Part shown: positions 38,881 to 56,077 of the stretch, one piece after another
Layout of the letters: every line of letters begins with the position of its first letter
Numbering within the stretch: position 1 is the stretch's first letter
Sequence record: NZ_CP041047.1
Source of the DNA: a plasmid
Strand: one strand, 5' to 3'
DNA: 64,000 nt
Translations under genes and position numbers: made by a program
The notes under the pieces: generated by a model
The model's input: the letters and a program-made list of their open reading frames with translations, nothing else
What the model was told of the DNA's origin: nothing
Database searches by the model: none

Positions 38881-40077
38881 TTACTTAAACCGCGCCTTAA
38901 GGGATTTAATTTGGGGGGTCGTTGCCAGCTCACAGCACCAGGCTTCAGTATCTGGGAAGGCAGAAATTTTATGGCGTAGCTCGTGTAGGCGCTCGTTTTC
39001 GGGATCAACACCGTGCAGCGGCAAAAAATCCGGGGTCAGGATGCACAGTGCGCAGGCTGCAAAGCCTTCCATGCGCTTTTCAGCGCCCTCAAGCTGTATG
39101 GTCACCAAATTACGCGTTAGTCGATCCACTTCCACCGGATCATCACTGTTACGAATAGCCTCTACCACGATTGTGTTGTAATTGCGATAGAGATCGGTTT
39201 CGGAATCACCATGCGCAAATACTGGCACCTGGGCCCGACGCTGTCGATATTGTTCAAAGGTCATCTCAATCACCTCTAACGCCAGCTGCTTATCAATCCG
39301 GGTCGTATCAGCCTTATAGAAAAGTGATTGTGCTAGCTGATGGCCAGCGTATATCTCTCCAAGCCGAAACATTCCCGAGAGTGCCATGATGCCCCGCCAG
39401 GTTTTAATGGGCTCTCCGGTGTTAATCCAGCGTGTAGCAATGGTGCCAACCTCAAGAATGAGCAACTCCCAGGCAGGTGAAGAACGAACTTTGGTCATAA
39501 GGCTGTCTTCCTGGGCCAGGAAGTGTAAAGCGATAGCTCGGTACACATGTTTTTGCTCAGGATTCTCAGACCCAACTAAATGATCAAACACATGGTGGAA
39601 TTCCTCAATCAGGCGGCCTTCATCTTTGGCCTGAACCATCTCCTGATAATTTGATTCATACTTGTCTTCTACAATCGCCAGGGGCTGCACTAACTCGATT
39701 AGGTTCACACACTGAACATAAAGATTATCCGGCACCCGGAAATGTGCTTTCGCTGCATGGTGATTGATAAATGCAGACAGGCGGTCAGCCATAGCCTTAC
39801 GGCGATCAATAACCTGGTTCCAGGACAAACCTTCATCGACGACAAGGGCAAGTGCCGGTATATCATTGAGCTTTTCGACGCCCAGCATGGCAGTCAACAA
39901 ATCCGTTTCACCCGACTGTTGCCCTTGGACATGGTACGCATCATGGTAACCTTGCCGAAATGTGTTGATATCGGCTACAGAGTCAAATTTTTTGAGACTT
40001 GATTTAATGCGGCCGATGGCCGTGCGAGCAAGTTTACGGTCGAATTTCTGCGACGCGAATGACGATGGTGAGTTCAT
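38881..40077 (-). CDS. hypothetical all-alpha protein, upstream partner of the zinc-finger gene
   Basis: 398-aa ORF, 70 bp upstream of and co-oriented with the Zn-finger gene. Confidence 0.5.
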   Translation of the reverse strand: MNSPSSFASQKFDRKLARTAIGRIKSSLKKFDSVADINTFRQGYHDAYHVQGQQSGETDLLTAMLGVEKLNDIPALALVVDEGLSWNQVIDRRKAMADRLSAFINHHAAKAHFRVPDNLYVQCVNLIELVQPLAIVEDKYESNYQEMVQAKDEGRLIEEFHHVFDHLVGSENPEQKHVYRAIALHFLAQEDSLMTKVRSSPAWELLILEVGTIATRWINTGEPIKTWRGIMALSGMFRLGEIYAGHQLAQSLFYKADTTRIDKQLALEVIEMTFEQYRQRRAQVPVFAHGDSETDLYRNYNTIVVEAIRNSDDPVEVDRLTRNLVTIQLEGAEKRMEGFAACALCILTPDFLPLHGVDPENERLHELRHKISAFPDTEAWCCELATTPQIKSLKARFK

Positions 40078-40460
40078 GGTTTTTCCTCAAGTAGACAAAG
40101 TCCTGACACATAAAAAGTGCCATGTATTGGACCCGGAGTCGTCTGACCCCCTTGAGGTTGGGTAGTAGCCTAACCCTTTTACCGTATCGCGCTTGCCCTG
40201 TGATGTCAATACACCTTACCCCAATGACGCTATAACGCTTTTTACAACCTTTTATTAGTTTGGAAAAGGTCCATGAACTGAAGCAGAGTAAGCTGTCAGA
40301 ATATATTTAAAAGAGGCGCATTTCCTGTTAGTTCATGAAGTTCTCTTAAAGTGATTTCAACTTTCTGTTAAAAAAATCTTTTATAGCAGAGAAGCACACG
40401 CATTAAAAACCCGGCCACTGTCACTGTGACTGGATAAGCCGACGGGACCTGCGTTTCTCA

Positions 40461-41246
40461 TTATCTGGCGGCAATTACCGCATCTGCAATTTCCACAAAA
40501 CCAGCACCTCCCGGGCCACGGGTGATCCACTGTGGAGGTTTCGGGATTTGATCAAGGAAATCTGATACCGTGCTCACTCCCACCGTATGTTCAAAGAATG
40601 AAAACATCGGCGCATCATTCGTCGAGTCGCCGCTATACAATACGGCAGAACGTTCGGCATCAATGTCGAGATCGTAATAATCCCTGAGCACTCGTCGGGC
40701 CATAGATAACTTGTCATACTCTCCAGACCAACCAAGAATCCAGAGATTGTTTACGGTGGTTGTCGCACCTGCTTGCGTCAATGCGTTAAGTATTAATGAA
40801 CACTGATGGGCTTCTGGCGGTTTAGCAAAGGCAATGGACGTCATCCTGAAAGGTTGATCGTCGGCAAAATGAGCGGCAGGAATTTCCCTTTTTATCTGTT
40901 CCCCAATTTGCGTCAGGCGCTCAGCGACGTCAGGATATTTTTCTGTGCCGTGCCAGAAGAAACGCTCAATGCCATGACCGTCATTTTGCCTCCTGAAAAA
41001 CACACCGCCATTTTCACCAATGACACCATCAACTGGCCACATCCGTGCCATCTGGTCGCACCAGCCGGCTGGCGCGGCTGTGACCGGTATCACTTTGACT
41101 CCCGCGTTCTGCAACCGTTCCAACGCCATATAGGTTTCAGCCGCAAGGCGCCCCTTGTAAGTCAGCGTTTCATCCATGTCTGTGAGAACAAAACGCACAT
41201 GTTTAAATGTTGACGAATCTGCGGAACAGATCTCTTTCATAAGCAC
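40461..41246 (-). CDS. HAD-superfamily hydrolase (Cof/subfamily IIB-like)
   Basis: motif I LTDMDETLT, C-terminal GDSTNDAPMF. Confidence 0.7.
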   Translation of the reverse strand: MLMKEICSADSSTFKHVRFVLTDMDETLTYKGRLAAETYMALERLQNAGVKVIPVTAAPAGWCDQMARMWPVDGVIGENGGVFFRRQNDGHGIERFFWHGTEKYPDVAERLTQIGEQIKREIPAAHFADDQPFRMTSIAFAKPPEAHQCSLILNALTQAGATTTVNNLWILGWSGEYDKLSMARRVLRDYYDLDIDAERSAVLYSGDSTNDAPMFSFFEHTVGVSTVSDFLDQIPKPPQWITRGPGGAGFVEIADAVIAAR

Positions 41247-41530
41247 GCTCGAAGACTTGTAGAGATAATAATGGTTTATAATTAAACGACTTATGGAATT
41301 ATTAAAGTCAAAATCGTACTAAGTTATAATTTTTATTGCGTTATTTACACCTCAGAGTCGCGTTTGGGCGGTGAAGGTGTGCTGGGTGCGGTTCAGATGC
41401 AGCATGTTCATACTCACACAACTTAACATCTCCCAACGGCTCTCGTCGAGTCATGGCGTTCTGAATGAAATCGGAGAAATCTTGCGATGACTAGTCGAAA
41501 AATTAAACTGTTATTTTATTACAACATGAT

Positions 41531-41556
41531 ATCCGGGGTTCTCTCCCCGGATATTT
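41531..41556 (-). terminator. perfect 10-bp hairpin downstream of eriC-F operon
   Basis: ATATCCGGGG-AGAGAA-CCCCGGATAT; weak U tract. Confidence 0.35.
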
Positions 41557-41578
41557 TATCATGACTACTTTCCTGTAT

Positions 41579-41968
41579 TCAGGCAAACTCAGGTGCATGA
41601 AGGGAAATATGGTGAGCATGAGGCTCTTCACATTTTAATAGTACGGCATATACCTTTTTTAACTCTTCCATATTTTCATGAAGAAAAGCTCTCAGATTTT
41701 CTTCCGAGTCCAGTAGCTCGAGACACTGGGGATGTGTCATATTGGTTAACTCAGGATGATGGTGAGATAATCGTTTTCCGGGAAGATAACCGGAGGTGAC
41801 ATGATGTAATGTCGCTGCTTTAATGTCTGATTTCTTCGCCACGGAAAGAAGATGCTGCGCCAGTTGGGGAGCTAGTAATCTGTGCCAAAAACGTCTGGCA
41901 CTGGCTTTAGATGCGACTGGAAAATATAATCTTAAAGCGGCTAAAGTCTGGACTGCATCTGCACTCAT
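41579..41968 (-). CDS. hypothetical protein translationally coupled to eriC-F
   Basis: 129 aa, start overlaps eriC-F stop. Confidence 0.45.
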   Translation of the reverse strand: MSADAVQTLAALRLYFPVASKASARRFWHRLLAPQLAQHLLSVAKKSDIKAATLHHVTSGYLPGKRLSHHHPELTNMTHPQCLELLDSEENLRAFLHENMEELKKVYAVLLKCEEPHAHHISLHAPEFA

Positions 41969-43338
41969 TTAGAACTCTCCATTGTGACTTCTTTGTCTTT
42001 TTTCGGTTGGATTTTTATTTCATTTTCTTCACTTGATAACGCGAAAGATTTCTTCCTGCGAACAGCAGAAATTTCAGAAATGCGTAGCTCAGACGGAACA
42101 AGTGTACGGTATCGGCGGCTTTTGGCATGACCGACTCGCTGGGCATGATAAATCCCGGTATGTCCTGAAAAAAGATATGCCGTAAAGCAGCCGACGGCAG
42201 AAAATACCGCCATTTCGGTACCGAACAGTTCCATCGCCATAAAGGTTGTCGCAAGCGGGGTATTTGCCGCACCGGCAAACACAGCTACAAAACCTATCCC
42301 GGCCATAAAAGCAAATGGCATGTGCAGAAGAGGAGCGAGAGCATTCCCCAGAGTGGCACCAATGTAAAACAGAGGTGTGACCTCACCACCTTTAAATCCT
42401 GTCGCCAGAGAAACGATGGTAAAGCTCATTTTTCCCATAAAATCCATCGGATATAGCGGTTCTTTAAAGGCTCGGACAATTTCCGGAATACCGAGACCAA
42501 TATAACGGTCAGTACCGATAAACCAGACGGCGGCAGCAATCAGTATCCCTCCGAAAAAAGGACGCAAAGGAGCATATTTAATGTAACGTTTAACGATCCC
42601 ACTAGCCTTTCCGGTCGCGACAGAGAATACCATTCCTGCCAGCCCGAATACGGCACCCGCTATCACAACGGACAGGAAACTCCATATAGTAAATGCCGGG
42701 ATGAAATCGATGCGGTAATGTGTGTGATGTACCCCCCATGCCAGACAGACCTGATCGGCAAGCACTGCGGCAACCAGACAGGGGAACAGCGCGTCATAAC
42801 GAATTCGCCCTATTGCCAGTACTTCCATCCCAAAGATAGCACCGGCCATCGGGGTACCGAATACTGACGAAAAGCCCGCGCTCATCCCAGCCATCAGCAG
42901 TATCCGACGAGCGTCTTTCTTCACTTTAAACATATGCGTCAACTGATCGGCCAGGGCTCCCCCCATCTGAACCGCCGTCCCTTCGCGCCCTACCGAAGCG
43001 CCAAACAGATGCGACATGAGGGTACCGCCCAGAACCAGTGGCACCATCCTTATCGGAACCACCTTTCTCGGATCGTGTATCTCATCGATAATCAGGTTAT
43101 TGCCAGCGTTGACGGGCTCGCCATACCAGCTGTAAACCAGTCCGACCAGGAGACCTGCCAGTGGAAGCAACCATATCATCCAGGAATGGGATTCCCGCCA
43201 TGCTGTGGCATTATCGAGTGAGAGCAGAAATACCGCGGATGCAGTACCTGCCAGTAATGCGATAAGACTCGCAGTAACTAACCATGCCCCTATATAGGAA
43301 AATAATTCAATTTGATCGTGGTGTTTTAGTCGTTTCAT
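41965..43338 (-). CDS. eriC-F: CLC-F fluoride/proton antiporter
   Basis: CLC-F signatures GNNLI and GREGT (instead of GSGIP/GKEGP), GTPMAG; true start ATG 43338 (AGGA RBS); fluoride riboswitch upstream. Confidence 0.85.
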   Translation of the reverse strand: MKRLKHHDQIELFSYIGAWLVTASLIALLAGTASAVFLLSLDNATAWRESHSWMIWLLPLAGLLVGLVYSWYGEPVNAGNNLIIDEIHDPRKVVPIRMVPLVLGGTLMSHLFGASVGREGTAVQMGGALADQLTHMFKVKKDARRILLMAGMSAGFSSVFGTPMAGAIFGMEVLAIGRIRYDALFPCLVAAVLADQVCLAWGVHHTHYRIDFIPAFTIWSFLSVVIAGAVFGLAGMVFSVATGKASGIVKRYIKYAPLRPFFGGILIAAAVWFIGTDRYIGLGIPEIVRAFKEPLYPMDFMGKMSFTIVSLATGFKGGEVTPLFYIGATLGNALAPLLHMPFAFMAGIGFVAVFAGAANTPLATTFMAMELFGTEMAVFSAVGCFTAYLFSGHTGIYHAQRVGHAKSRRYRTLVPSELRISEISAVRRKKSFALSSEENEIKIQPKKDKEVTMESSK

Positions 43339-43380
43339 TGGTCCTGGCTCGTGAGTTTCAGGGCTGACCAATGGGGAGTG

Positions 43381-43424
43381 CAGAAAATAGCCTACAGTAC
43401 CGACAAAGGTCAGTGTTCTGTAGG
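43381..43424 (-). terminator. riboswitch expression-platform terminator
   Basis: CCUACAG...CUGUAGG stem sharing the aptamer 3' CCUAC, followed by CUAUUUUCUG. Confidence 0.65.
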
Positions 43425-43473
43425 CGTCATTAACTGTCAGAAAACAGTGGTTATAAGGAGGAACGCCATCTCC
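43420..43473 (-). promoter_or_regulatory. fluoride riboswitch (crcB motif) aptamer
   Basis: RNA GGAGAUGGCGUUCCUCC-UUAUAAC-CACUGU...ACAGU-UAAUGACGCCUAC matches consensus GGnGAUGGnGUUCnCC...UAAUGAnnCCUAC; pseudoknot GGCGU/ACGCC; TATAGT -10 about 7 nt upstream. Confidence 0.85.
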
Positions 43474-43694
43474 GCCGGGCACTATACCTGTTCTGCCCAA
43501 CGTTGACCATGATTTTTCCTGCTTCGCCTGCGGAATTAGCCTCCCCTCATTCGCAAAACCGTAACGGATCGCCGGAAAATGGAGTGTTCCGCAGATTGTC
43601 TGCCAGTGAAATATTATTCAGGATAGACAGACCAAGATACAGGAAATGAAGATGACAGTTTTTAAATATTGCCACTGCCATCTCCCACCCATCA

Positions 43695-44273
43695 TTAAAT
43701 TTTGAATAATTTTAAGCTGATTGTTTTAAAAAAAGAGAATACATATTCACCTTTATATTTCCATAACCGGCAGAAAAGAGCATTAGACACCATCCCCGTG
43801 ATGACACCTCCTATCATATCGAGAGGAAAATGTACGCCAAGATAAATACGTGACCAGGCGACCAGAATACTAATGCCCAACACCACCAGGCCGGTACGTA
43901 CTGCCTTTGCGCTGATCAGCGCAAGCGCAAAACACACAAAAATGGTCATATGATCACTCGGGAATGAGTAATCTGCCGTATGCGAAAACCAGACATAGCC
44001 CAGCGGAACCATAAATGGTCTTGGATGCGGCCAGAAGGTTCCAATAATCAGGCTCAACACTACACCAATGACCATTGTTAACGTTGAGCGAAGCGCCAGT
44101 ATCTTTCCTTTTTCTTTACCGGCAAACCATAAAAAAATAATAATAAATGGTATGGCATAAATAAGGGTATTCGCAAAAAAATTCGCAATAACCAGAGCTG
44201 AATCAGGCGTTCCAGGCTTAGCGTTCATAGCAAGGAAAATTTTTCTGTTCAGAGTTTCAATTTCATTCAGCAT
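43695..44273 (-). CDS. PAP2-family lipid phosphatase (PgpB/YbjG-like)
   Basis: PAP2 motifs PHPRPF, FPSDHM, SRIYLGVHFPLD; six TM helices. Confidence 0.7.
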   Translation of the reverse strand: MLNEIETLNRKIFLAMNAKPGTPDSALVIANFFANTLIYAIPFIIIFLWFAGKEKGKILALRSTLTMVIGVVLSLIIGTFWPHPRPFMVPLGYVWFSHTADYSFPSDHMTIFVCFALALISAKAVRTGLVVLGISILVAWSRIYLGVHFPLDMIGGVITGMVSNALFCRLWKYKGEYVFSFFKTISLKLFKI

Positions 44274-44497
44274 AAATGTTAATTACCCAGAAAAAAGAAG
44301 CATAATACTGCCTGATTCTTAATATTCACTTAAGAAAAATCCATGATGGCTGGCAGATCCCCCCAGATTCTCACCGTTCATTCTCGCTGAAGCCCTGGAG
44401 GGATAGGATGACACCGCGCGTAAGGAATAACCTACACAACAGAGAACAATAATTGATATTGATTTATTGCAACGGTCCATATAAGATTGATCAACAA

Positions 44498-44565
44498 GGT
44501 GATGGTGCTCCACCTTACCCAACCGCCGGTTTCTTTAAAAACCGGATGATGACGCCTGATATACA
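44498..44565 (+). promoter_or_regulatory. fluoride riboswitch (crcB motif) aptamer
   Basis: GGUGAUGGUGCUCCACC-UUACCCAAC-CGCCGG(loop)CCGG-AUGAUGACGCCUGAU; P1 GGUG/CACC; 3' CCUGAUAUACA can pair with UGUAUGUCAGG spanning the start codon. Confidence 0.7.
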
Positions 44566-44592
44566 GTTGAATTAGTCCTTTTATAGGCATGT

Positions 44593-45570
44593 ATGTCAGG
44601 TATCGCTATGAAAAATCAAACCACATTACCGCTTACCTCAGAATCTCTCTCTTTTCAAAGAGATAATCCAATCCATGTCTTCGGTCATCGAAATCCTGAC
44701 AGCGATGCTATCTGCAGCGCGCTGGTTGTGGCTGACTGGCTTAATTACACTGGTCGTCCCGCAACGCCCTGGCGCCTGGGGGATATCACCCCGGAAACCC
44801 GTTACATCCTCAATGTCGCGGGTGTTTCACAACCTGATTTACTCACCGCCGACTTGACTGATAAAACCGTATGGCTGGTTGATTTTACGGATGCGGAGCA
44901 GGGACCATCCTCGTTGATGGACAGCAACGTCATCGGCATCATTGACCATCATCGTATTGGCACCCTCATTACCCGCAATCCACCGGATGTCTGGGTGCGG
45001 GCGGTAGGATGCTGCGGAACCGTAATTCTCTCAATTCTGATGCATGACATTCCGATGCCGATTACGGCATCTCAGGCAGTGTTGCTGATGGGGGCGATCC
45101 TCAGTGATACCGTTGCGCTGACTGGCCCCACCACCACCACTCAGGATCAGGAAGCCGTGGCAGTTTTGCGTGAAATCGCCGGTATCGATTATGACCAGTT
45201 TGTGACAGGGCTACTGCGTGCCAAAACAGATATAACCGGGCAATCCACATCGGTATTACTCAATCGTGACGCCAAAAATTACCGGATCCATGATGTGCCG
45301 CTGTTGTTGTCACAAATTGAGGTACGCGACATGGCTGATATTACTCCCCTGTTGCCCGCGCTGCTGCAGGAAATGGATAAAACCTGTAAAGACAGTTCGC
45401 TGGACATGGTTATTTTGATGGTGACAGACATCACCAACCGGAACTCCGTTTTACTTTTTTCAGATAGCAGCCTGACAGGCTCTCTCCAGATGTCGCTGCC
45501 CGGTATGACAAGCCGGAAGAAAGAAATCCTGCCCTGGCTGACCGACCACTTCGCTTCTTATAAGAGGTGA
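44593..45570 (+). CDS. ppaC: DHH-family II (Mn-dependent) inorganic pyrophosphatase-like phosphoesterase
   Basis: DHH motifs HRNPDSDAICSA, GIIDHHRIG; 325 aa. Confidence 0.7.
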   Translation: MSGIAMKNQTTLPLTSESLSFQRDNPIHVFGHRNPDSDAICSALVVADWLNYTGRPATPWRLGDITPETRYILNVAGVSQPDLLTADLTDKTVWLVDFTDAEQGPSSLMDSNVIGIIDHHRIGTLITRNPPDVWVRAVGCCGTVILSILMHDIPMPITASQAVLLMGAILSDTVALTGPTTTTQDQEAVAVLREIAGIDYDQFVTGLLRAKTDITGQSTSVLLNRDAKNYRIHDVPLLLSQIEVRDMADITPLLPALLQEMDKTCKDSSLDMVILMVTDITNRNSVLLFSDSSLTGSLQMSLPGMTSRKKEILPWLTDHFASYKR

Positions 45571-45573
45571 TTT

Positions 45574-46002
45574 ATGCAAATTTACCGGCATGCCTTATTA
45601 CTTGTACAGAATGAAACCGATGGTCTGCTGTTGCTTGAGCAGGCAGAACGTCTGGCAAAAGAGATGGGCACCCGTATTACTGTCGGCCATCTCAGCGCTG
45701 ACTACCGGGAACTGGATTATACCAGTGATTCATTAACTAAAGATCGCCAGTCACACGAAGTTATTGATGCAAAGGCAATGCTGAGCCGTCTGGTGGAGTC
45801 CAGCAGTATTGATATCAAAGTCAGGTCCATCGTCAGTATCCATCGTTTCCGGGACGTCGAAGCCGTTGTTCAGCACGAAGATATTGATCTGGTCATGCTG
45901 GGGCATAAAAACCGCCTGTTCGGGGTTTTTTCTTCCTACTCTTTCGAATTTATCAATCACCTTTCTGTTGATGTTTTGATTAAACACATTCCAACCCCAT
46001 AA
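45574..46002 (+). CDS. usp: universal stress protein family
   Basis: 142 aa UspA fold, VMLGHKNR. Confidence 0.7.
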   Translation: MQIYRHALLLVQNETDGLLLLEQAERLAKEMGTRITVGHLSADYRELDYTSDSLTKDRQSHEVIDAKAMLSRLVESSSIDIKVRSIVSIHRFRDVEAVVQHEDIDLVMLGHKNRLFGVFSSYSFEFINHLSVDVLIKHIPTP

Positions 46003-47304
<1,302 letters not shown>

Positions 47305-47313
47305 TTCCGTCAC

Positions 47314-47343
47314 CCTTCCCGTATGCTTAGCTACGGGAAGGGG
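47314..47343 (+). other. strong RNA hairpin after eno without U tract
   Basis: CCCTTCCCGTA-loop-TACGGGAAGGG. Confidence 0.4.
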
Positions 47344-47355
47344 TAAGGTGATCCT

Positions 47356-47550
47356 ATGAACGGAAAAATACTCATACTGTCAACAGCAACGGGGATCCTG
47401 GCAACCTGTCTGGTTTTCCTGATCGCCGATGTCTTTTTTAACGTACTGCCAGATGATACCAGCGCTGTTGTAATCGCGCTGTTCATCGGGAGCTGCACCC
47501 ATCTTCTGATGCGCCACCTCCTTGACCGGAGCCCAGGTAAATTCAGGTAA
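47356..47550 (+). CDS. small two-TM membrane protein inside fluoride operon
   Basis: 64 aa, AAGGTGA RBS. Confidence 0.35.
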   Translation: MNGKILILSTATGILATCLVFLIADVFFNVLPDDTSAVVIALFIGSCTHLLMRHLLDRSPGKFR

Positions 47551-47622
47551 TCAGTACAAACAACTGAACGGGTTCAGGTCCTTCAGGTTCAGTCGCTGTT
47601 GGTGACCGACAGGTAGTTGCTT

Positions 47623-48309
47623 ATGGGAAAAATTATTTTACTCCGCCATGGAGAGAGTCAGTGGAATCAGCAAAATCGTTTTACCGGATGGGAAGATGTT
47701 CCGCTGACGCAGAAAGGAGTGGAGGAAGCCCGGCGCGCAGCAAACCTGATAAAACGGTCGGGGATCATCATTGATGGTGCCTGCACATCCGTTCTGAATC
47801 GGGCAATTCATTCACTCTGGCTGATAATGGAAACGCTGAATCAATTGTGGTTACCGGTGGACAAATCATGGCGGTTAAATGAACGCCATTACGGTGCGCT
47901 TCAGGGAATGAATAAGGATGAAGCCGCTCAACAAATTGGCCAGAATATCGTTTATCACTGGCGGAGGAGCTATCGTGGCATCCCTCCTCCGTTGCTGGAT
48001 GCGCCTGCTTTACTTCATCGTGAGGCACGTTATCGCCATGTGTCCCTGACGGACCTACCGGCGGGTGAAAGTCTGGAAATGACGCAGCGAAGGCTGCTGC
48101 CTTACTGGCACCACGTCATTGTCCCGCGTGTTGCCAGTGGTGAAACCATGCTGCTGGTCAGTCATGCTAATGCATTGCGTGCGCTAACCATGTTTATTGA
48201 GCAGATTGATGAGAACAAGGTTCCCGATCTGCATGTCCTGACGGGTATCCCCGTACTGTATGAAATGAATGAAAATCGGGCCATCACCGCACGTTATTCC
48301 CTTGAATGA
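47623..48309 (+). CDS. gpmA: 2,3-bisphosphoglycerate-dependent phosphoglycerate mutase (GpmA-like)
   Basis: LLRHGESQWN catalytic motif, WLPVDKSWRLNERHYGALQG. Confidence 0.8.
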   Translation: MGKIILLRHGESQWNQQNRFTGWEDVPLTQKGVEEARRAANLIKRSGIIIDGACTSVLNRAIHSLWLIMETLNQLWLPVDKSWRLNERHYGALQGMNKDEAAQQIGQNIVYHWRRSYRGIPPPLLDAPALLHREARYRHVSLTDLPAGESLEMTQRRLLPYWHHVIVPRVASGETMLLVSHANALRALTMFIEQIDENKVPDLHVLTGIPVLYEMNENRAITARYSLE

Positions 48310-48343
48310 CGGTCTGATGGTGCCCTGATTTCTGCGAGGTGGT

Positions 48344-48718
48344 ATGTACAAATCATTATTCGCGGTAGTGATAGGCGGCTCGATCGGCTGTGTGATCCGC
48401 TGGATACTGTCCATGCGTCTCAATGCACTTTTCCCCAATCTTCCACCTGGCACCCTGGTGGTTAATCTGGTTGGCGGATTTATCATCGGTATGGCACTGG
48501 CCTTCTTTGTCCGGCAGCCTCACCTCGATCCCGCCTGGAAGTTTTTTATTACCACCGGCTTATGCGGCGGTATGACCACCTTTTCCACTTTTTCAGCTGA
48601 GGTGGTAGTTCTACTTCAGAATGGCAATTATGCATGGGCTGTCATTTCCGTACTGACGCACGTAACTGGCTCGCTTTTGATGACTGCAGCCGGTTTTTTT
48701 GTAATGACACTGTTGTAA
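48344..48718 (+). CDS. crcB: fluoride channel CrcB/Fluc
   Basis: 124 aa, GGFIIG...CGGMTTFSTF motifs. Confidence 0.9.
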   Translation: MYKSLFAVVIGGSIGCVIRWILSMRLNALFPNLPPGTLVVNLVGGFIIGMALAFFVRQPHLDPAWKFFITTGLCGGMTTFSTFSAEVVVLLQNGNYAWAVISVLTHVTGSLLMTAAGFFVMTLL

Positions 48719-48791
48719 AGGCATATGCGCCATACACTTAACCGGTGCCATGTCTCCGTCAGACTTTTATTATATCGGCATAACAACACGC

Positions 48792-48814
48792 CTGACCTGC
48801 CGGGTCAGTTTTTT
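48792..48814 (+). terminator. intrinsic terminator / attenuator immediately upstream of P-type ATPase RBS
   Basis: CTGACC-tgccg-GGTCAG followed by TTTTTT, 15 nt before ATPase ATG. Confidence 0.6.
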
Positions 48815-48828
48815 CCGGAGAAGGATGT

Positions 48829-51165
48829 ATGGAGATGACCCCTGAGAATAACGTGAAGGGACTTTCCGAAGCCGAGGTGCAGGCCAGGCTGGTGCAATAT
48901 GGCTATAACGAAGTACGTGAACAGCCTCCGGGCCAGCTGCGTACGATCCTCAAACGTCTGTGGGGCCCCATCCCCTGGATGCTCGAAATTGCGCTGGTAC
49001 TCGAAGTGGCTCTGGGAAAGACGGTTGAACCCGCCATCATTGCAGGATGGCTCGCTTTCAGTGCGGTCCTTGGCGGCATTCAGGAACGGCGGGCACAGTC
49101 AGCACTTGACCTGCTGCGTAGTCGGCTGAAAGTTAATACCAGTGTATGCCGTGATGGCACCTGGCGCCAGATACCGGCCCGAGGGCTTGTCCCCGGTGAC
49201 TTTATCGTCTTAACGGCGGGGAACCTGGTCCCTGCCGACTGTATGATTGATGAGGGAGTCGTGGATGTTGACCAGGCAGCCCTGACCGGGGAGTCGACCC
49301 AGGAGTCACACAACAAGGGTGATACTCTCTATTCAGGATCGACGATTACACGCGGTAAGGCGACAGGAACCGTCACCGCCACCGGTACCCGAAGCTACTT
49401 TGGGCGTACGGCAGAGCTGGTACGAACGGCCAGCTCTGCCAGCCATCTTGAACAGCTTCTGTTCGCTGTTGTGCGCTATCTTGTGACCATTGACGCCGTG
49501 CTTGCGGTCATTCTGGCCGTTGTTGCACTCTGGCGCGGTGAAGATTTGTTGCCCCTCGTCCCCTTTTTTCTTGTTCTCATTATTGCGACCGTCCCGGTGA
49601 CAATGCCGGCAGCCTTTACGGTCGCCAATGCAGTGGAAGCCCGGCGACTGGCGAATCAGGGGGTACTTGTCACCGGCCTGTCAGCGGTACAGGAAGCGGC
49701 AACCATGGATGTGCTGTGTATCGACAAAACCGGTACACTGACCAGAAACCAGCAGTCAGTTGCCGGCATAACGGCGCTTCCGGGAGAGAATGAGGACGAG
49801 GTACTGGCCTGGGCTGCCGCAGCCTGCGACGAAACGATGCAGGGGCAACTTGAGATGGCGATTCTGGATGCGTTACGACGCCGGGGGGGAATGCCGCACA
49901 TCCGTGAGCAATTCATCCCGTTCGATCCTGCCACGAAACGTTCCGAAGCCCGTGTGTGTTCAGACAATGACGGATCGTCCGTTCACGTCATTCTGGGTTC
50001 ACCGATGGTCGTTGCATCACTCGCCGAATCTCCTCCTGAGTTCACCACGATCCAGCAGGCCATGGCGGCGTCCGGCGCCAGGATCCTGGCAGTCGCAACC
50101 GGCACCGACGGCCATCTCCGTATCCGAGGGTTGCTGGCACTAGCCGATACACTACGCGATGATGCCGCAGCCCTCGTCAGGGATATCCGGGCACTGGGTA
50201 TCAGGATAATCATGGTCACCGGTGATACGGTTGATACCGCCAGAGTTATCAGCCGCCAGGCAGGACTCGGTGACCGCTTCGGCGATGCAGCCAGGGACCT
50301 GCAGGCACCTCTCCACTTTGATGGTTTTGCTAACTTCTATCCGGAGGAAAAATTCCGTCTGGTGCAGTCCCTGCAACAAACGGGCTGTATAGTCGGCATG
50401 ACGGGTGACGGTGTGAATGATGCGCCGGCACTGAAACAAGCCGGAGTGGGCATTGCCGTACAAACAGCGTCTGACGTGGCAAAAGCAGCTGCTCAGGTGG
50501 TATTGACCCACCCCGGGTTAGACGGTGTTGCCGCCGTCGTATCAGGGGGCCGCTGTGTGTTTCGCCGTATGCTGACCTGGACAATAACGAAAATAGCCCG
50601 GACCGTTGAGCTGGCGGCCCTGCTGACCATCGGCTATATCGCGACAGGATTCTTCGTCACACCGCTGGTTCTGATTGCCGTGATTGTGGTTCTCAATGAT
50701 GTGGTGACCATCACGCTGGCGACAGACCGGTCATGGATTTCTTCATCACCGGAAAGATGGAACGTTGGTGAAATTGCCAGGCTGGGAGGTGTCCTGGCCG
50801 CAGGCTGGCTGGTTCTGGCATTCATTATCCTGTGGTTCGTCCTTACCAGGTTGCAGCTTCCCGTCCCACAAATCCAGGCCCTGATGTTCGCCTATCTGAT
50901 GTATACGGCCCAGATGACGATTTATCTTTCACGAACGCCGGGCCGCTGCTGGTCACTCCGGCCGGGCCGGTTTGTTGTGTTGGCCACGGTGGGCAATATC
51001 ATCATTGCCACCGTACTGGCTGCCGGTGGTTTTCTTATGACGCCGGTTTCACTGACACTGCTGGTCATCATGTTTGCTCTGGTTTTGCTGGCCACCCTTC
51101 TGCTCGATCAGATCAAGATATGGCTCTTCGCCAGAAGACCTGTTGAGGACTCACCGAAAAGCTGA
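48829..51165 (+). CDS. P-type cation-transporting ATPase (type III H+/Mg2+-like)
   Basis: DKTGTLT phosphorylation site, MVTGD, GDGVNDAPAL; 778 aa. Confidence 0.8.
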   Translation: MEMTPENNVKGLSEAEVQARLVQYGYNEVREQPPGQLRTILKRLWGPIPWMLEIALVLEVALGKTVEPAIIAGWLAFSAVLGGIQERRAQSALDLLRSRLKVNTSVCRDGTWRQIPARGLVPGDFIVLTAGNLVPADCMIDEGVVDVDQAALTGESTQESHNKGDTLYSGSTITRGKATGTVTATGTRSYFGRTAELVRTASSASHLEQLLFAVVRYLVTIDAVLAVILAVVALWRGEDLLPLVPFFLVLIIATVPVTMPAAFTVANAVEARRLANQGVLVTGLSAVQEAATMDVLCIDKTGTLTRNQQSVAGITALPGENEDEVLAWAAAACDETMQGQLEMAILDALRRRGGMPHIREQFIPFDPATKRSEARVCSDNDGSSVHVILGSPMVVASLAESPPEFTTIQQAMAASGARILAVATGTDGHLRIRGLLALADTLRDDAAALVRDIRALGIRIIMVTGDTVDTARVISRQAGLGDRFGDAARDLQAPLHFDGFANFYPEEKFRLVQSLQQTGCIVGMTGDGVNDAPALKQAGVGIAVQTASDVAKAAAQVVLTHPGLDGVAAVVSGGRCVFRRMLTWTITKIARTVELAALLTIGYIATGFFVTPLVLIAVIVVLNDVVTITLATDRSWISSSPERWNVGEIARLGGVLAAGWLVLAFIILWFVLTRLQLPVPQIQALMFAYLMYTAQMTIYLSRTPGRCWSLRPGRFVVLATVGNIIIATVLAAGGFLMTPVSLTLLVIMFALVLLATLLLDQIKIWLFARRPVEDSPKS

Positions 51166-51229
51166 ACACAGATTATAACCGTTCGCCATAGCCTGAACGG
51201 TTATCGCCTGTCGGGCTATGTGGGGGCAT

Positions 51230-52750
51230 TCAGCTGCGTTCAGCGGGTTGTGCCGGAGGCGTGAAGACCTCCCGGTAGAGGTCTTCACCATAGCTGGTAT
51301 CCAGTGGTGTCCCTTCCGTCATGCGGAACGTTCTTTCACCATCATCACGCCTCTCCGCGCACAGATAAACCGTATCCTGGTGATACTCCTGATAAAATGC
51401 GCAGGCAAATTCCGACGTGTGTGTGACGAAAAACAGCTTCACATGACACTCTGCCAGCGCGGTCACTATCCCCCTGATAATACCGGCTCCTTCCCGGCTG
51501 TTGGTGGCGGCAAACGATTCATTAAACAACACCAGATCATCCGGCTTCAGTTCGCTAACGATATCCCGCATGCGTCTGAGCTCTTCATCAAGCTTTCCGC
51601 TGACCATATGGCTGTCTTCTTCACATTTATAATGAGTAAAAATCTGCCGGCAGATATCGGAACTGAAACATTCAGCAGACACAAACATTCCCGTCTGCAT
51701 CATTATCTGAGCCAGGCCAATGCTGCGCAGGAACGTTGATTTTCCACCCTGGTTAGCCCCGGTAATAATAAAGGTATTTTTATTATCCGTTTTCAGGGTA
51801 TTACTGATGACAGTATCCGGAGAGGTCAGCGCCAGACAGGTATCAAATAATGAATCAAAGACCAGATGGCGCTCCCTTTTGTAGATCGGAACCGGAAAAC
51901 ACTGTGGCACATTCCGGTGATTCAGCACCTCAGCAAGATTCAGGCAGGCGATATAGAAACCCAGCTCAGCACGCAACGCGCGAAAGAAATTGAGCAGATG
52001 TGCTGTAGACTGAGCCATTGCGCTGGCAACCAACACCAGTCCTTCATCCTGCAGGTCACTGAGTGCCCTGAACCCATTTTCATCCCGGGGAGCAATCTGT
52101 ACCGTATAATGTTCCGGTTTGCGGGAAAACAGACGCCGGAACCAGTTTCTGCTCTCCGCGGCAGGCTGGCGAAGAACATAGGCCTCCCCCCGGTTTCCCG
52201 CCCCCAGTCTGGCGCTCAGCAATACCCCTTTTTTAAATGTCATCTGCCTGAGGTGTTCCTCGATCACCTCAAGGTATTCATCATTCAGCTCCTGCATAAT
52301 CATGACAAACAGGCGTTCCATACCGGGTGAGGCGACATGAAGAAGGTTTTTCTCCGCTATTCCCCTGACCTTACGTAAATTGTCCAGCAGAAAACGGGTG
52401 AACGAAATGGACTGATGAAGAATGGCGGAAGGGTATCGCCCGAAAATACCGTAATGGAGTTTTTCCTTTTCCATTAACAGGCAGTCCACCACAATTTTAT
52501 AAAATTCCCTGAAAATTTCAGGATTGTAGAGACAATCGCGCAGGATAGCCTGCCGGTATTCAATATCCTGTACCTCGGTCAATGGTTGTGAACACGCTTT
52601 TCTCACCACCGAATACAGAAAATCATCCCCACCGGAAAGCGCCTGAAAGAGGACATCCAGCTCAAGGTCTTTAGTCAGAAGGGTAAAGTGGGCAGGAAAT
52701 GATTCATCCACGATAAAATCATCATGTTTATACATCAGGTATGCTTTCAT
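51230..52750 (-). CDS. MutS-domain (III/V) ABC-ATPase family protein lacking mismatch-binding domain
   Basis: Walker A ITGANQGGKSTFL, LVLFNESFAATNS...FFVTHTSEF (MutS domain V); start ATG 52750 overlaps upstream stop. Confidence 0.65.
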   Translation of the reverse strand: MKAYLMYKHDDFIVDESFPAHFTLLTKDLELDVLFQALSGGDDFLYSVVRKACSQPLTEVQDIEYRQAILRDCLYNPEIFREFYKIVVDCLLMEKEKLHYGIFGRYPSAILHQSISFTRFLLDNLRKVRGIAEKNLLHVASPGMERLFVMIMQELNDEYLEVIEEHLRQMTFKKGVLLSARLGAGNRGEAYVLRQPAAESRNWFRRLFSRKPEHYTVQIAPRDENGFRALSDLQDEGLVLVASAMAQSTAHLLNFFRALRAELGFYIACLNLAEVLNHRNVPQCFPVPIYKRERHLVFDSLFDTCLALTSPDTVISNTLKTDNKNTFIITGANQGGKSTFLRSIGLAQIMMQTGMFVSAECFSSDICRQIFTHYKCEEDSHMVSGKLDEELRRMRDIVSELKPDDLVLFNESFAATNSREGAGIIRGIVTALAECHVKLFFVTHTSEFACAFYQEYHQDTVYLCAERRDDGERTFRMTEGTPLDTSYGEDLYREVFTPPAQPAERS

Positions 52751-53071
52751 CCGTTTAACCCCGCTTTTATTTTTTCGTAGGTCAGCCCATATTTCTGCAC
52801 CAGGGTGACCGACCATGCCACGCCATCAGCAGGTTTCCTGATAATTTTATAGGTCCGGGAGGCCTCATTATCCTCTTCCACCGTACTCATCATGCTGACG
52901 ACTGACGTATCCAGTGCCGTCAGTTCATCGATAAACGTCACGCAGATACAAATGGCATCCAGCGCGATGACCTTTTCAATGATCCGGGTACCCAGAAAAA
53001 TCGCATCGTGTGAGGTTGTGGAGGTGAATATCTCATTCATAATGATGAGACTGCGGGTAGTGGATTTATCC
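52747..53071 (-). pseudogene. MutS-domain ATPase paralog, 5' part removed by IS26
   Basis: C-terminal LIIMNEIFTSTTSHDA...FIDELT resembles MutS domain V; reading frame runs into the IS26 IR at 53072. Confidence 0.5.
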
Positions 53072-53891
53072 GGCACTGTTGCAAATAGTCGGTGGTGATA
53101 AACTTATCATCCCCTTTTGCTGATGGAGCTGCACATGAACCCATTCAAAGGCCGGCATTTTCAGCGTGACATCATTCTGTGGGCCGTACGCTGGTACTGC
53201 AAATACGGCATCAGTTACCGTGAGCTGCAGGAGATGCTGGCTGAACGCGGAGTGAATGTCGATCACTCCACGATTTACCGCTGGGTTCAGCGTTATGCGC
53301 CTGAAATGGAAAAACGGCTGCGCTGGTACTGGCGTAACCCTTCCGATCTTTGCCCGTGGCACATGGATGAAACCTACGTGAAGGTCAATGGCCGCTGGGC
53401 GTATCTGTACCGGGCCGTCGACAGCCGGGGCCGCACTGTCGATTTTTATCTCTCCTCCCGTCGTAACAGCAAAGCTGCATACCGGTTTCTGGGTAAAATC
53501 CTCAACAACGTGAAGAAGTGGCAGATCCCGCGATTCATCAACACGGATAAAGCGCCCGCCTATGGTCGCGCGCTTGCTCTGCTCAAACGCGAAGGCCGGT
53601 GCCCGTCTGACGTTGAACACCGACAGATTAAGTACCGGAACAACGTGATTGAATGCGATCATGGCAAACTGAAACGGATAATCGGCGCCACGCTGGGATT
53701 TAAATCCATGAAGACGGCTTACGGCACCATCAAAGGTATTGAGGTGATGCGTGCACTACGCAAAGGCCAGGCCTCAGCATTTTATTATGGTGATCCCCTG
53801 GGCGAAATGCGCCTGGTAAGCAGAGTTTTTGAAATGTAAGGCCTTTGAATAAGACAAAAGGCTGCCTCATCGCTAACTTTGCAACAGTGCC
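53072..53891 (+). mobile_element. IS26 (copy 1), 820 bp
   Basis: 14-bp IRs GGCACTGTTGCAAA / TTTGCAACAGTGCC; no flanking 8-bp duplication. Confidence 0.95.
53135..53839 (+). CDS. tnpA: IS26 transposase Tnp26 (variant with Gly at position 196)
   Basis: MNPFKGRHFQRDIILWAVRW...; differs from copy 2 at KTAYGTIKG vs KTAYATIKG. Confidence 0.95.
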   Translation: MNPFKGRHFQRDIILWAVRWYCKYGISYRELQEMLAERGVNVDHSTIYRWVQRYAPEMEKRLRWYWRNPSDLCPWHMDETYVKVNGRWAYLYRAVDSRGRTVDFYLSSRRNSKAAYRFLGKILNNVKKWQIPRFINTDKAPAYGRALALLKREGRCPSDVEHRQIKYRNNVIECDHGKLKRIIGATLGFKSMKTAYGTIKGIEVMRALRKGQASAFYYGDPLGEMRLVSRVFEM

Positions 53892-54153
53892 ACTTTTTGT
53901 GGTGTTTAAATAAAACATTGGGCACCAAAACATATCCAAAAGATGCAAATTTCGTTACCATGAAAACACAAAGGTGTCAGAGAAAGAATCTCGGTCCACC
54001 TATAGTTCAAGTCCGACAGGCTGCTAACCGCAGCGATTTGCCGACCTTGCGCGCCTGCATATGCCTGCGCGGGCGACGGTGCAAAAATCGCGCGCATGCT
54101 GCGAATCGAACGAACCAAAACCGCAATAGAACACACCGTCCAGGGAGCAAGCA

Positions 54154-55845
54154 ATGCGAACCAACATGCCAGTAACAAATTCCGAGTACATCTTGAAGGA
54201 CACGGAAACGATCGTTTCCAAGACTGATTTGAGCGGGAATATCACCTACGTTAACCAGGATTTCTGCATTATCAGCGGCTTCTCGGAAGAAGAACTAATT
54301 GGATCGCCGCAAAATATCGTGCGTCACCCGGATATGCCGGCTGAGGCGTTCAAAGATTTCTGGAGCACTATCAAGGCCGGCAAAGCGTGGACTGGCCTGG
54401 TGAAAAATCGCTGCAAGAACGGCGATTATTATTGGGTCGAGGCCAATGTCGCGCCCATGCTGGAAAACGGCAAAATGGTCGGGTACACATCGATTCGCGT
54501 CAAGCCCAGCCGGGAGCAGGTAGCTGCCGCTGACAAAGCCTATCGCACGATCAAAAGTGGCAGCAACGAACTTCAGGTGCACGAAGGCTCGGTCGTCGCG
54601 CGCTCATTCTTCCGGCGCTTCGACTGGCTGGCGATCCTGTCGATCAGATCGAAAATCATGCTGTCGTCCGGGCTGCTGACGCTTCTGTTCATTGCAAACC
54701 TGGTCTTCTCGGCTTCTGGAAACAAGCAATTCGACGCATGGTCGAGCGCCGCTTCCATCCTCGGCATCGTCCTGGGCCTGGTGTCTGGATTCCTGCTGTA
54801 CCGCGCCGTCGTCGTGCCGCTGCAAAACGTCAAGCATGACATCGAACGGATGAGCGCGGGCGACCTGAGCGCCAAGATCGACGCCAATGGCGACGATGAG
54901 CTGGCGCAGATGATCCAATCGCTGCGCGTGCTGCAAACTAATGTGAAGCTATTGGTCGGCCAGATCAAGGAAGCGACCGATGTCGTCAATAGCGACGCCG
55001 CGGAAATCGCAACCGGCAATGCAGACCTGTCGGCCCGCACCGAATCGCAGGCTAGCTCACTGGAGGAAACCGCTTCCTCGATGGAAGAACTGACCAGCAC
55101 CGTGAAACAGAACGCCGACAATGCACGCGAGGCAAACCGACTGGTTGCGTCTGCATCCGAAACTGCGATAAAAGGCGGCCAGGCGGTCGGCCAGGTGGTC
55201 GGCACGATGGGGTCAATCAAGGAAAGCTCCCGCAAGATCGTCGATATCATCGGCGTCATCGACGGCATCGCGTTCCAGACCAACATCCTGGCCTTGAACG
55301 CAGCAGTCGAGGCCGCGCGCGCCGGCGAACAGGGCCGCGGCTTCGCGGTGGTAGCCGCCGAAGTGCGCAATCTTGCACAACGCTCGGCAGGCGCCGCCAA
55401 AGAAATCAAGTCCCTGATCAGCGACTCGGTCGAGAGAGTCGAGGCTGGCAGCAAGCTGGTCGACGATGCCGGCAAGACGATGGATGAGATCGTCACACAA
55501 GTCAAACAGGTTGCCGGCTACATGAGCGACATCACCTTGGCCAGCCAGGAACAAAGCGAAGGAATCGAACAAGTCAATCAAGCGATCACGCAGATGGACG
55601 AGGTGACGCAGCAAAATGCGGCGCTGGTCGAACAAGCGGCAGCCGCTGCCGAGGAAATGCAAAGCCAGGCAGGAAAACTGGCCCAGCTGGTCGACAGTTT
55701 CAAACTGGTCTCCGGTGCACAGGCAACGCGAAGTGGCAACACGCAGCCTGTTGCCATACGCGCGCCCACCCCGGTTGCACGCAAGCCTGTTGCCGCGATC
55801 CGGACGGCAACCCCGAAAAAACTTGCTCTAACCGGCAGGCGGTAG
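54154..55845 (+). CDS. PAS-domain methyl-accepting chemotaxis protein (Aer-like), foreign high-GC origin
   Basis: N-terminal PAS (NITYVNQDFCIISGF), two TM helices, HAMP, MCP signalling domain (NILALNAAVEAARAGEQGRGFAVVA). Confidence 0.8.
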   Translation: MRTNMPVTNSEYILKDTETIVSKTDLSGNITYVNQDFCIISGFSEEELIGSPQNIVRHPDMPAEAFKDFWSTIKAGKAWTGLVKNRCKNGDYYWVEANVAPMLENGKMVGYTSIRVKPSREQVAAADKAYRTIKSGSNELQVHEGSVVARSFFRRFDWLAILSIRSKIMLSSGLLTLLFIANLVFSASGNKQFDAWSSAASILGIVLGLVSGFLLYRAVVVPLQNVKHDIERMSAGDLSAKIDANGDDELAQMIQSLRVLQTNVKLLVGQIKEATDVVNSDAAEIATGNADLSARTESQASSLEETASSMEELTSTVKQNADNAREANRLVASASETAIKGGQAVGQVVGTMGSIKESSRKIVDIIGVIDGIAFQTNILALNAAVEAARAGEQGRGFAVVAAEVRNLAQRSAGAAKEIKSLISDSVERVEAGSKLVDDAGKTMDEIVTQVKQVAGYMSDITLASQEQSEGIEQVNQAITQMDEVTQQNAALVEQAAAAAEEMQSQAGKLAQLVDSFKLVSGAQATRSGNTQPVAIRAPTPVARKPVAAIRTATPKKLALTGRR

Positions 55846-55957
55846 TGCGGTAACTAGAACCAACATTTGAAACATTGCTGAATGGCGCGTCATCACCGCT
55901 TATTCTGGGAGAAATGAAATGCTAAACTCATTTACGTAGGAATCCTTGCGGTCCCCC

Positions 55958-56077
55958 ATGACCGAACAGTTCGACGCCAAGTCGGCCGAGATTCGCGCGA
56001 TGCTCAACAACCAACTCGAACCAAAGCACACGGCCGAGATCCGCGAGCGCATGCTGGCGGCGGGCTTGCCGATATAA
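55958..56077 (+). CDS. small ORF (39 aa) downstream of MCP
   Basis: ATG..TAA read directly, same GC-rich codon usage as MCP; below ORF-track cut-off. Confidence 0.2.
   Translation: MTEQFDAKSAEIRAMLNNQLEPKHTAEIRERMLAAGLPI

Follow-up and report, generated by a model that had tools for sequence, protein, structure and literature searches.

A plasmid-borne fluoride riboswitch upstream of a CLC-F antiporter gene, with a conserved start-site hairpin and a candidate terminator

Results

The CLC-F locus lies in a mobile fluoride-resistance island

The window, a 64,000-nt stretch of plasmid DNA (NZ_CP041047.1), carries on its minus strand a gene for a 457-aa CLC-F (EriC-F) fluoride/proton antiporter (41965-43338), which was assigned by structure match and by the Voltage_CLC family, with the start set at the codon common to its homologues. 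The first-pass annotation had placed eriC-F downstream of a riboswitch element at 43381-43473 (minus strand), whose bounds are the start of P1 and the end of a U-rich tail, and the best solved relative of the encoded protein is indeed a CLC-F antiporter. The closest solved structures, 6D0J, 6D0K and 6D0N, are CLC-type fluoride/proton antiporters (E = 5.5e-62), whereas the best canonical CLC, 3ND0, matched at E = 1.7e-12. The protein carries the motifs GNNLI, GREGTAVQ and GGEVTPLF, the last two of which align with motifs of the solved protein, and its scores against the NCBIfam ClcA/ClcB models were all below the cut-offs. The CLC-F stop overlaps by 4 nt (41965-41968) the start of a DUF190 gene (41579-41968, minus strand), which is probably co-transcribed and translationally coupled with the CLC-F gene. 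DUF190 follows CLC-F in Burkholderia and Paraburkholderia loci too (two loci).

A search with the covariance model revealed a second fluoride riboswitch (RF01734, 43.4 bits) on the plus strand at 44489-44565, about 1 kb from the copy on the eriC-F side, and no further RF01734 match in the window beyond these two. The second riboswitch precedes six plus-strand genes, namely a ppaC-like gene, usp, eno, gpmA, crcB and a gene for a P-type ATPase. Within its platform (44489-44625), GCCUGAUAUACA (within 44548-44566), made up of pseudoknot strand and tail, pairs with UGUAUGUCAGGU (44590-44601), which contains the Shine-Dalgarno (SD) sequence for the annotated AUG at 44608, and the long hairpin is not followed by a U tract. 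On the modelled pairing, this riboswitch looks like a case of direct SD sequestration. The six genes correspond to the ppaC-uspA-eno-gpmA-crcB-orf5249 operon of Enterobacter cloacae FRM, for which experiments showed fluoride-induced mRNA and resistance (PMC5533749); where that paper deals with the riboswitch and eriC-F, it makes no mention of a riboswitch on the CLC-F side. The eriC-F-side element is one of two switches governing a mobile fluoride-resistance island.

Between the two divergent riboswitches lies a gene for a PAP2-family phosphatase (43695-44273, minus strand), which has the same orientation as the CLC-F gene and lacks an aptamer; transcription running on from it would cross the CLC-F riboswitch. 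The PAP2 protein resembles undecaprenyl-diphosphate phosphatase, with a score of 161 bits that is below the 229-bit equivalog cut-off. Besides both riboswitches, the larger island, at about 39000-56000 (139296-158796 in NZ_CP067312.1), carries genes for a HAD-IIB hydrolase, two MutS-related proteins, a cation:proton antiporter and another universal stress protein. Near it lies an IS5-like ISKpn26 transposase.

Positions 41500-49000 of the window are 100% identical to plasmid p027_SK3a of Escherichia coli 027_SK3 (NZ_CP067312.1, 293 kb), on which the NCBI pipeline (PGAP) annotates a fluoride riboswitch at the same site and a second one nearby. The copy on the eriC-F side is genuine and previously annotated in RefSeq, and it is nothing categorically new; we found no experiments on this copy of the leader in the accessible literature. 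The region was detected, at ~80-100% identity, on 51 plasmids from Klebsiella, Citrobacter, Enterobacter, Salmonella, Escherichia and Raoultella, most of which were typed as conjugative. Large plasmids (245-359 kb) of E. coli, Klebsiella and Citrobacter carry the fluoride island with 100% identity, and the two of these plasmids that we checked were typed as conjugative and are of IncHI type. Variants of the island with 92-96% identity are found in Salmonella and Enterobacter. Furthermore, the chromosome of E. coli EH09-18-41 (NZ_CP063503.1, 4091540-4096097) carries the ppaC-to-crcB side only, at 92.5% identity. Because this chromosomal copy lacks both the CLC-F gene and its riboswitch, the island's two halves can move separately.

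The leader contains a complete and conserved fluoride aptamer

The element upstream of the CLC-F gene had been assigned to the crcB motif on first pass, with the bit score of the RF01734 covariance model proposed as a check. The model matched the sequence at full length (model positions 1-64 of 64) with 48.1 bits (gathering score, 34) and an E-value of 3.1e-10. The aptamer (43414-43482, minus strand), which is also annotated by PGAP, comprises, in minus-strand reading, P1 (GGAG 43473-43470 / CUCC 43460-43457), P2 (ACUG(U)/(A)CAGU within 43449-43432) and a pseudoknot (GGCGUU 43467-43462 / GACGCC 43428-43423). The latter had been described as a 5-bp helix, GGCGU/ACGCC, which is present and extends to 6 bp with the flanking U/G pair. 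The conserved core (GAUGG.GUU, AACC, UGAUGA..CCUAC) appears in the cmscan alignment as GAUGGCGUU, AACC and AAUGACGCCUAC, and the sole departure from it is U-A-A in place of U-G-A before UGAC, which is the same in the Burkholderia homologues. The aptamer ends 75 nt ahead of the CLC-F start and so sits within a fluoride-toxicity gene's 5' leader. The fold of the 108-nt leader has a z-score of -3.7. By every computational test of RF01734 membership, the element belongs to the class, and it stands in the canonical context for that class.

The relatives of the leader were collected in several ways. Distant blastn matches of the leader reached plasmids of Burkholderia and Paraburkholderia, and a scan with the CLC-F protein, restricted to one genome per species, yielded 80 loci with 58-69% identity, mostly from Betaproteobacteria, plus Pseudomonas, Xanthomonas and Zobellella. 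A strict regular expression for the aptamer matched 9 of the 80 loci, and a covariance model of the whole leader, from the aptamer to the start codon, recovered about 48-49 of them together with the two riboswitches of the window. Conservation of the aptamer helices was assessed in 50 leaders, and the hairpins described below were compared in 47 leaders under an enclosing-pair constraint. In the set of 50 related leaders, P1, P2 and the pseudoknot are 95-100% paired (97% for the pseudoknot alone), and P2 and two pairs of the pseudoknot have undergone compensatory changes. The fourth pseudoknot pair is G-C in the window copy, as opposed to the A-U that is commoner in the family.

An alternative in which the match is a chance resemblance, or a decayed and non-functional aptamer, is exceedingly improbable. 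It is contradicted by the full-length match and its E-value, by the integrity of all the helices, by the occurrence of the identical sequence in many plasmids of several genera and by the setting in a dedicated fluoride-resistance island. We rejected it on the RF01734 score and the intact, covarying helices.

Upstream of the aptamer, a candidate sigma-70 promoter (43481-43509, minus strand; 9 of 12 matches) consists of TGGTCA (43509-43504), a 17-nt spacer and TATAGT (43486-43481). The latter hexamer had been noticed earlier as a -10 element about 7 nt ahead of the aptamer, and it is located 7 nt before P1. Both hexamers are retained in four of the six enterobacterial variants; of the others, one has TATACT at -10 and one has TAGCCA at -35. 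Judging from these positions, transcription would start at about 43475-43473, at the foot of P1. Sites with 9 of 12 matches are no more frequent in the region than in shuffled sequence, and the promoter is regarded as a candidate, with weaker evidence than there is for the aptamer.

A conserved hairpin overlaps the pseudoknot strand and is followed by a U-rich tract

Hairpin T (43390-43425, minus strand), which would compete with the aptamer, has an outer stem formed by GCCUACAG (43425-43418) and CUGUAGGC (43397-43390). The stem CCUACAG/CUGUAGG of the first-pass annotation is present, is longer by one pair and is supplemented by an inner 6-bp stem, ACUGAC/GUCGGU. The suggestion that the 3' end of the aptamer is common to the hairpin was borne out as well, with GCC(UAC) belonging to both the pseudoknot region and T: T opens with the last three bases of the pseudoknot strand (GCC, 43425-43423) and also takes in the conserved UAC. 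Folded alone, T has a free energy of -20.4 kcal/mol (z = -4.8), and none of 200 shuffled sequences folded as well as the whole leader or T. In all 47 leaders analysed, T begins at the GCC of the pseudoknot strand. Its free energy is between -15 and -26 kcal/mol in 45 of the leaders, and in the other two the search picked a truncated stem. Both stems are 98-100% paired and contain compensatory changes, and T was independently predicted by RNAalifold.

Directly 3' of hairpin T lies UAUUUUCUG (43381-43389, minus strand), the U-rich tail noted previously, in which 6 of the 9 bases are U. The tract is interrupted in the window (UAUUUUCU) and differs among the enterobacterial copies (UGUUUCCUG, UAUUAUCUG). 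A tail with at least 6 U in the 9 nt after T was found in only 2 of the 47 leaders, namely, the window (UAUUUUCUG) and an Undibacterium leader (UAUUCUUUU), and in the remaining 45 the tail is GC-rich, typically G[UC]UCGCG. Composition predicts 0.28 such tails in the 47 leaders (P = 0.03); interrupted, variable and absent from 45 leaders, the U tract could be due to compositional chance. A simple terminator scan, which models a loop of 3-8 nt and an uninterrupted stem, did not flag the site of hairpin T, in our view because the internal loop and the bulge of T fall outside the scan model. From its sequence, T together with the U tract is a candidate intrinsic terminator, and termination relieved by fluoride is plausible. 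The earlier description of the element as transcription-terminating holds with respect to a strong hairpin that overlaps the pseudoknot and carries a U-rich tail. Termination itself is plausible and would be part of the picture only: the tail is confined to two leaders, and the helix over the start site had been missed.

A conserved helix is predicted to cover the Shine-Dalgarno sequence and the start codon

Folding and covariation point to another hairpin, S (43336-43373, minus strand), a putative sequestor of the start site, in which CAUUGGUC (43373-43366) pairs with GACCAAUG (43343-43336). The GACCAAUG arm contains the AUG at 43338-43336. The helix can also form in another register, with CAUUGGU opposite ACCAAUG and CCUG (43362-43359) opposite CAGG (43346-43343) of the SD region. 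The free energy of hairpin S is -13.6 kcal/mol (z = -2.7). This conserved helix, which is absent from the first-pass annotation, is predicted to bury both the SD sequence and the AUG.

When 13 leaders are aligned with MAFFT alone, the pairing of S reaches 96%; one pair is compensatory (U-A to G-C/C-G), and in three others the variation is confined to one side, largely through wobble. All 8 pairs of S show double changes in a model-fitted alignment, which leans towards the modelled structure. RNAalifold recovered the hairpin independently. Moreover, the two enterobacterial substitutions of CAGG, UAGG and CGGG, both still pair with CCUG by wobble. In the window, the duplex between the linker and the start window (C:D) has a free energy of -14.0 kcal/mol (p = 0.005). 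Across the 47 leaders, the best linker duplex with the start window from -12 to +6 has a median of -13.9 kcal/mol, beats shuffled sequences at p <= 0.05 in 51% of cases and fully covers the AUG in 79%.

Two features of this part of the leader were recorded alongside. The linker between T and S is C-rich and G-poor, and a Rho-dependent component was considered. In addition, the G[UC]UCGCG tails of betaproteobacterial leaders (more than five of them) are complementary to the conserved UCGAGC in the loop of S (GCUCG/CGAGC); such a pairing would cross the S helix, either as a pseudoknot or as an alternative pairing. The window retains CGAGC (43351-43347) and has the U tract in place of the G[UC]UCGCG tail.

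The 5' arms of S and T are complementary to each other, and the complementarity of the S arm often extends to the T loop. In the window, this pairing (B:C), between CAG..CUGACC of T and GGUCAG..CUG of S, has a free energy of -11.3 kcal/mol (p = 0.005). On an alignment not fitted to B:C, the helix is 79% paired, compared with 20-57% for slid controls, and this value was reached by 0 of 500 shuffles. A leader's own T arm beats the arms of other leaders and falls into the best quartile in 55% of cases. These comparisons suggest that B:C is a candidate anti-sequestor. When the aptamer strand was blocked in equilibrium folding, S stayed closed in the window (unpaired probability of the start region, 0.27 vs 0.28); across the 47 leaders, the shift was modest (median unpaired probability, 0.27 before and 0.41 after blocking) and was strong in 7. 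By itself, the anti-sequestor contributes no more than -8.4 kcal/mol. Because equilibrium folding does not reproduce a translational switch in the window, the opening of the start site is a step that we infer, and the anti-sequestor, if it works, would have to act kinetically during transcription or with the help of the ribosome.

Discussion

Taken together with its position, the aptamer is almost certainly that of a fluoride-activated riboswitch controlling the CLC-F gene. Its action is proposed to proceed through fluoride binding, termination and translational opening. In the absence of fluoride, the 3' strand of the pseudoknot would be free, GCCUACAG would pair with CUGUAGGC and hairpin T (43425-43390) would close. 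With T followed by UAUUUUCUG, an E. coli-type RNA polymerase would terminate near 43385-43381; on this termination tier, swapping UAUUUUCUG for GCUCGCGUC would abolish termination. Closed T would also lock its own 5' arm, and the transcripts that escape would fold S over the SD sequence and the AUG, leaving expression OFF. With fluoride, the pseudoknot, stabilised by Mg and F, would hold GACGCC(UAC), the base of T could not close, and transcription would read through. With its base open, T would release its 5' arm (CAG..CUGACC) for pairing with the complementary 5' arm of S (GGUCAG..CUG), which would expose the SD sequence and the AUG and turn expression ON. A point against this mechanism is that just three bases of the pseudoknot overlap hairpin T.

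We favour an ON switch with a dual platform, in which intrinsic termination and start-site sequestration both contribute in this copy, because the three-way competition among pseudoknot, T and S is conserved and a U tract follows T in the window. This reading is held tentatively, at somewhat under an even chance, and the complete statement of the dual platform for the window copy comes close to an even chance without reaching it. Considered separately, intrinsic termination probably contributes in the window copy, and we likewise lean towards a contribution from start-site sequestration. A switch that works by termination only, with fluoride blocking the terminator formed by T and the U tract and with S as a constitutive hairpin or an ancestral relic that does not respond to fluoride, would agree with the strong hairpin followed by 6 U in 9 nt, with the architecture of published transcriptional fluoride riboswitches and with the equilibrium models, in which S of the window copy is unaffected by the state of the aptamer. 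Such a switch does not account for the retention of S and of its complementarity to the T arm, with covariation, across distant lineages, nor for the wobble-compatible substitutions that preserve S in the enterobacterial variants; moreover, a hairpin permanently closed over the SD sequence and the AUG would defeat an ON switch. We consider it unlikely.

The converse alternative, that the output is translational only, as proposed for the P. syringae and betaproteobacterial homologues, would make the U-rich tail a poor terminator that arose as a by-product of AT-drift after transfer to enterobacteria. A tract rich in U right at the base of a -20 kcal/mol hairpin nevertheless has the appearance of an intrinsic terminator; such tails are commoner here than composition predicts (2 vs 0.28, P = 0.03), and both U-tailed leaders are among those with the lowest GC content, where terminators of this kind are used. 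On the other side, 45 of the 47 homologous leaders have no U tract and yet retain T and S, and the tract is variable among the enterobacterial copies. The second riboswitch of the island, too, has a pure SD-sequestering design without a U tract, and the mRNA of the homologous operon is still induced by fluoride in E. cloacae FRM (PMC5533749). As a corollary, any effect of fluoride on the mRNA level would be secondary, through Rho or through decay of the untranslated leader, which we rate as improbable to the same degree as the translational alternative itself. Because the U tract is imperfect and lineage-specific, neither alternative is negligible, and each is given the same minor share of our confidence.

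Under the favoured dual platform, the origin of the two tiers can be placed in an evolutionary frame. The ancestral output of the eriC-F leader looks translational, and a translational design is, as judged from the leaders, the only visible output in most lineages, including Pseudomonas syringae. It is possible, though rather less likely than the dual platform, that the enterobacterial plasmid copy is an evolutionary intermediate, in which an ancestral translational platform, consisting of aptamer-competing hairpin, anti-sequestor and start-codon sequestor as in Pseudomonas and Betaproteobacteria, gained a U tract behind the pre-existing T after horizontal transfer to lower-GC hosts and so became dual, with the Undibacterium leader as an independent parallel. 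If true, a purely translational fluoride riboswitch would have turned into one that is both transcriptional and translational. The mildly new point is the conserved translational platform of eriC-F leaders, with a terminator-like tail grafted onto the same hairpin in two low-GC lineages; the presence of the U tract behind this hairpin in only these two lineages offers a natural example of a change in the type of expression platform.

Comparison with known systems

The closest relative of the window copy is the eriC-F leader of P. syringae (sequence from Supplementary Data 1 of PMC7541441), with homology over the whole leader and not over the aptamer alone. The two leaders share P1, the pseudoknot, the GCCUACAG..CUGUAGGC hairpin, the UUGGUCAG element, the GNCCAAAUG start region and the CLC-F gene that follows. 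They differ in the tail, which is GUUCGCGCUUAG without a U tract in P. syringae and UAUUUUCUG in the window, in the fourth pseudoknot pair, which is A-U in P. syringae and G-C in the window, and in that the window copy is plasmid-borne in Enterobacteriaceae. The P. syringae eriC-F riboswitch is presented as characterised in PMC7541441, which cites Baker et al. (2012, Science 335:233), and it has served experimentally as a fluoride switch. In the work of Baker et al., the construct used for in-line probing was reportedly named '78 Psy'. The best P. syringae reporter retained the native start and first codons (PMC7541441), which is consistent with the conservation of a translational design. For engineers of fluoride sensors based on eriC-F leaders, the use of these observations is modest and lies in that the conserved output looks translational.

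In published transcriptional fluoride riboswitches, the terminator has the pseudoknot strand as its base (PMC11077080). The window copy resembles those of Bacillus cereus crcB and Thermotoga petrophila in the aptamer class and in that the 3' strand of the pseudoknot is the base of a U-tailed hairpin; for these two, the proposal is that the bound ligand keeps the terminator from displacing the strand (PMC11077080). However, their platforms are simple terminators abutting the aptamer, whereas in the window the overlap amounts to three bases and the hairpin is long, with an internal loop. The window copy also has a further hairpin over the SD sequence and the AUG, and there is no sequence homology to either outside the aptamer core.

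With the operon riboswitch of E. cloacae FRM, the CLC-F leader shares the aptamer class and the resistance island; the counterpart of that riboswitch in the window is the element at 44489-44565 (plus strand), divergent from the CLC-F leader. That element is a separate copy with a platform of another kind, a single long hairpin in which the pseudoknot strand pairs directly with the SD region. Riboswitches that act both transcriptionally and translationally are known, for example, E. coli lysC and ribB, which use RNase E or Rho. As in lysC and ribB, a single decision of the aptamer is proposed to feed two outputs in the window copy; unlike in these systems, the second tier would be a putative intrinsic terminator added to a translational platform.
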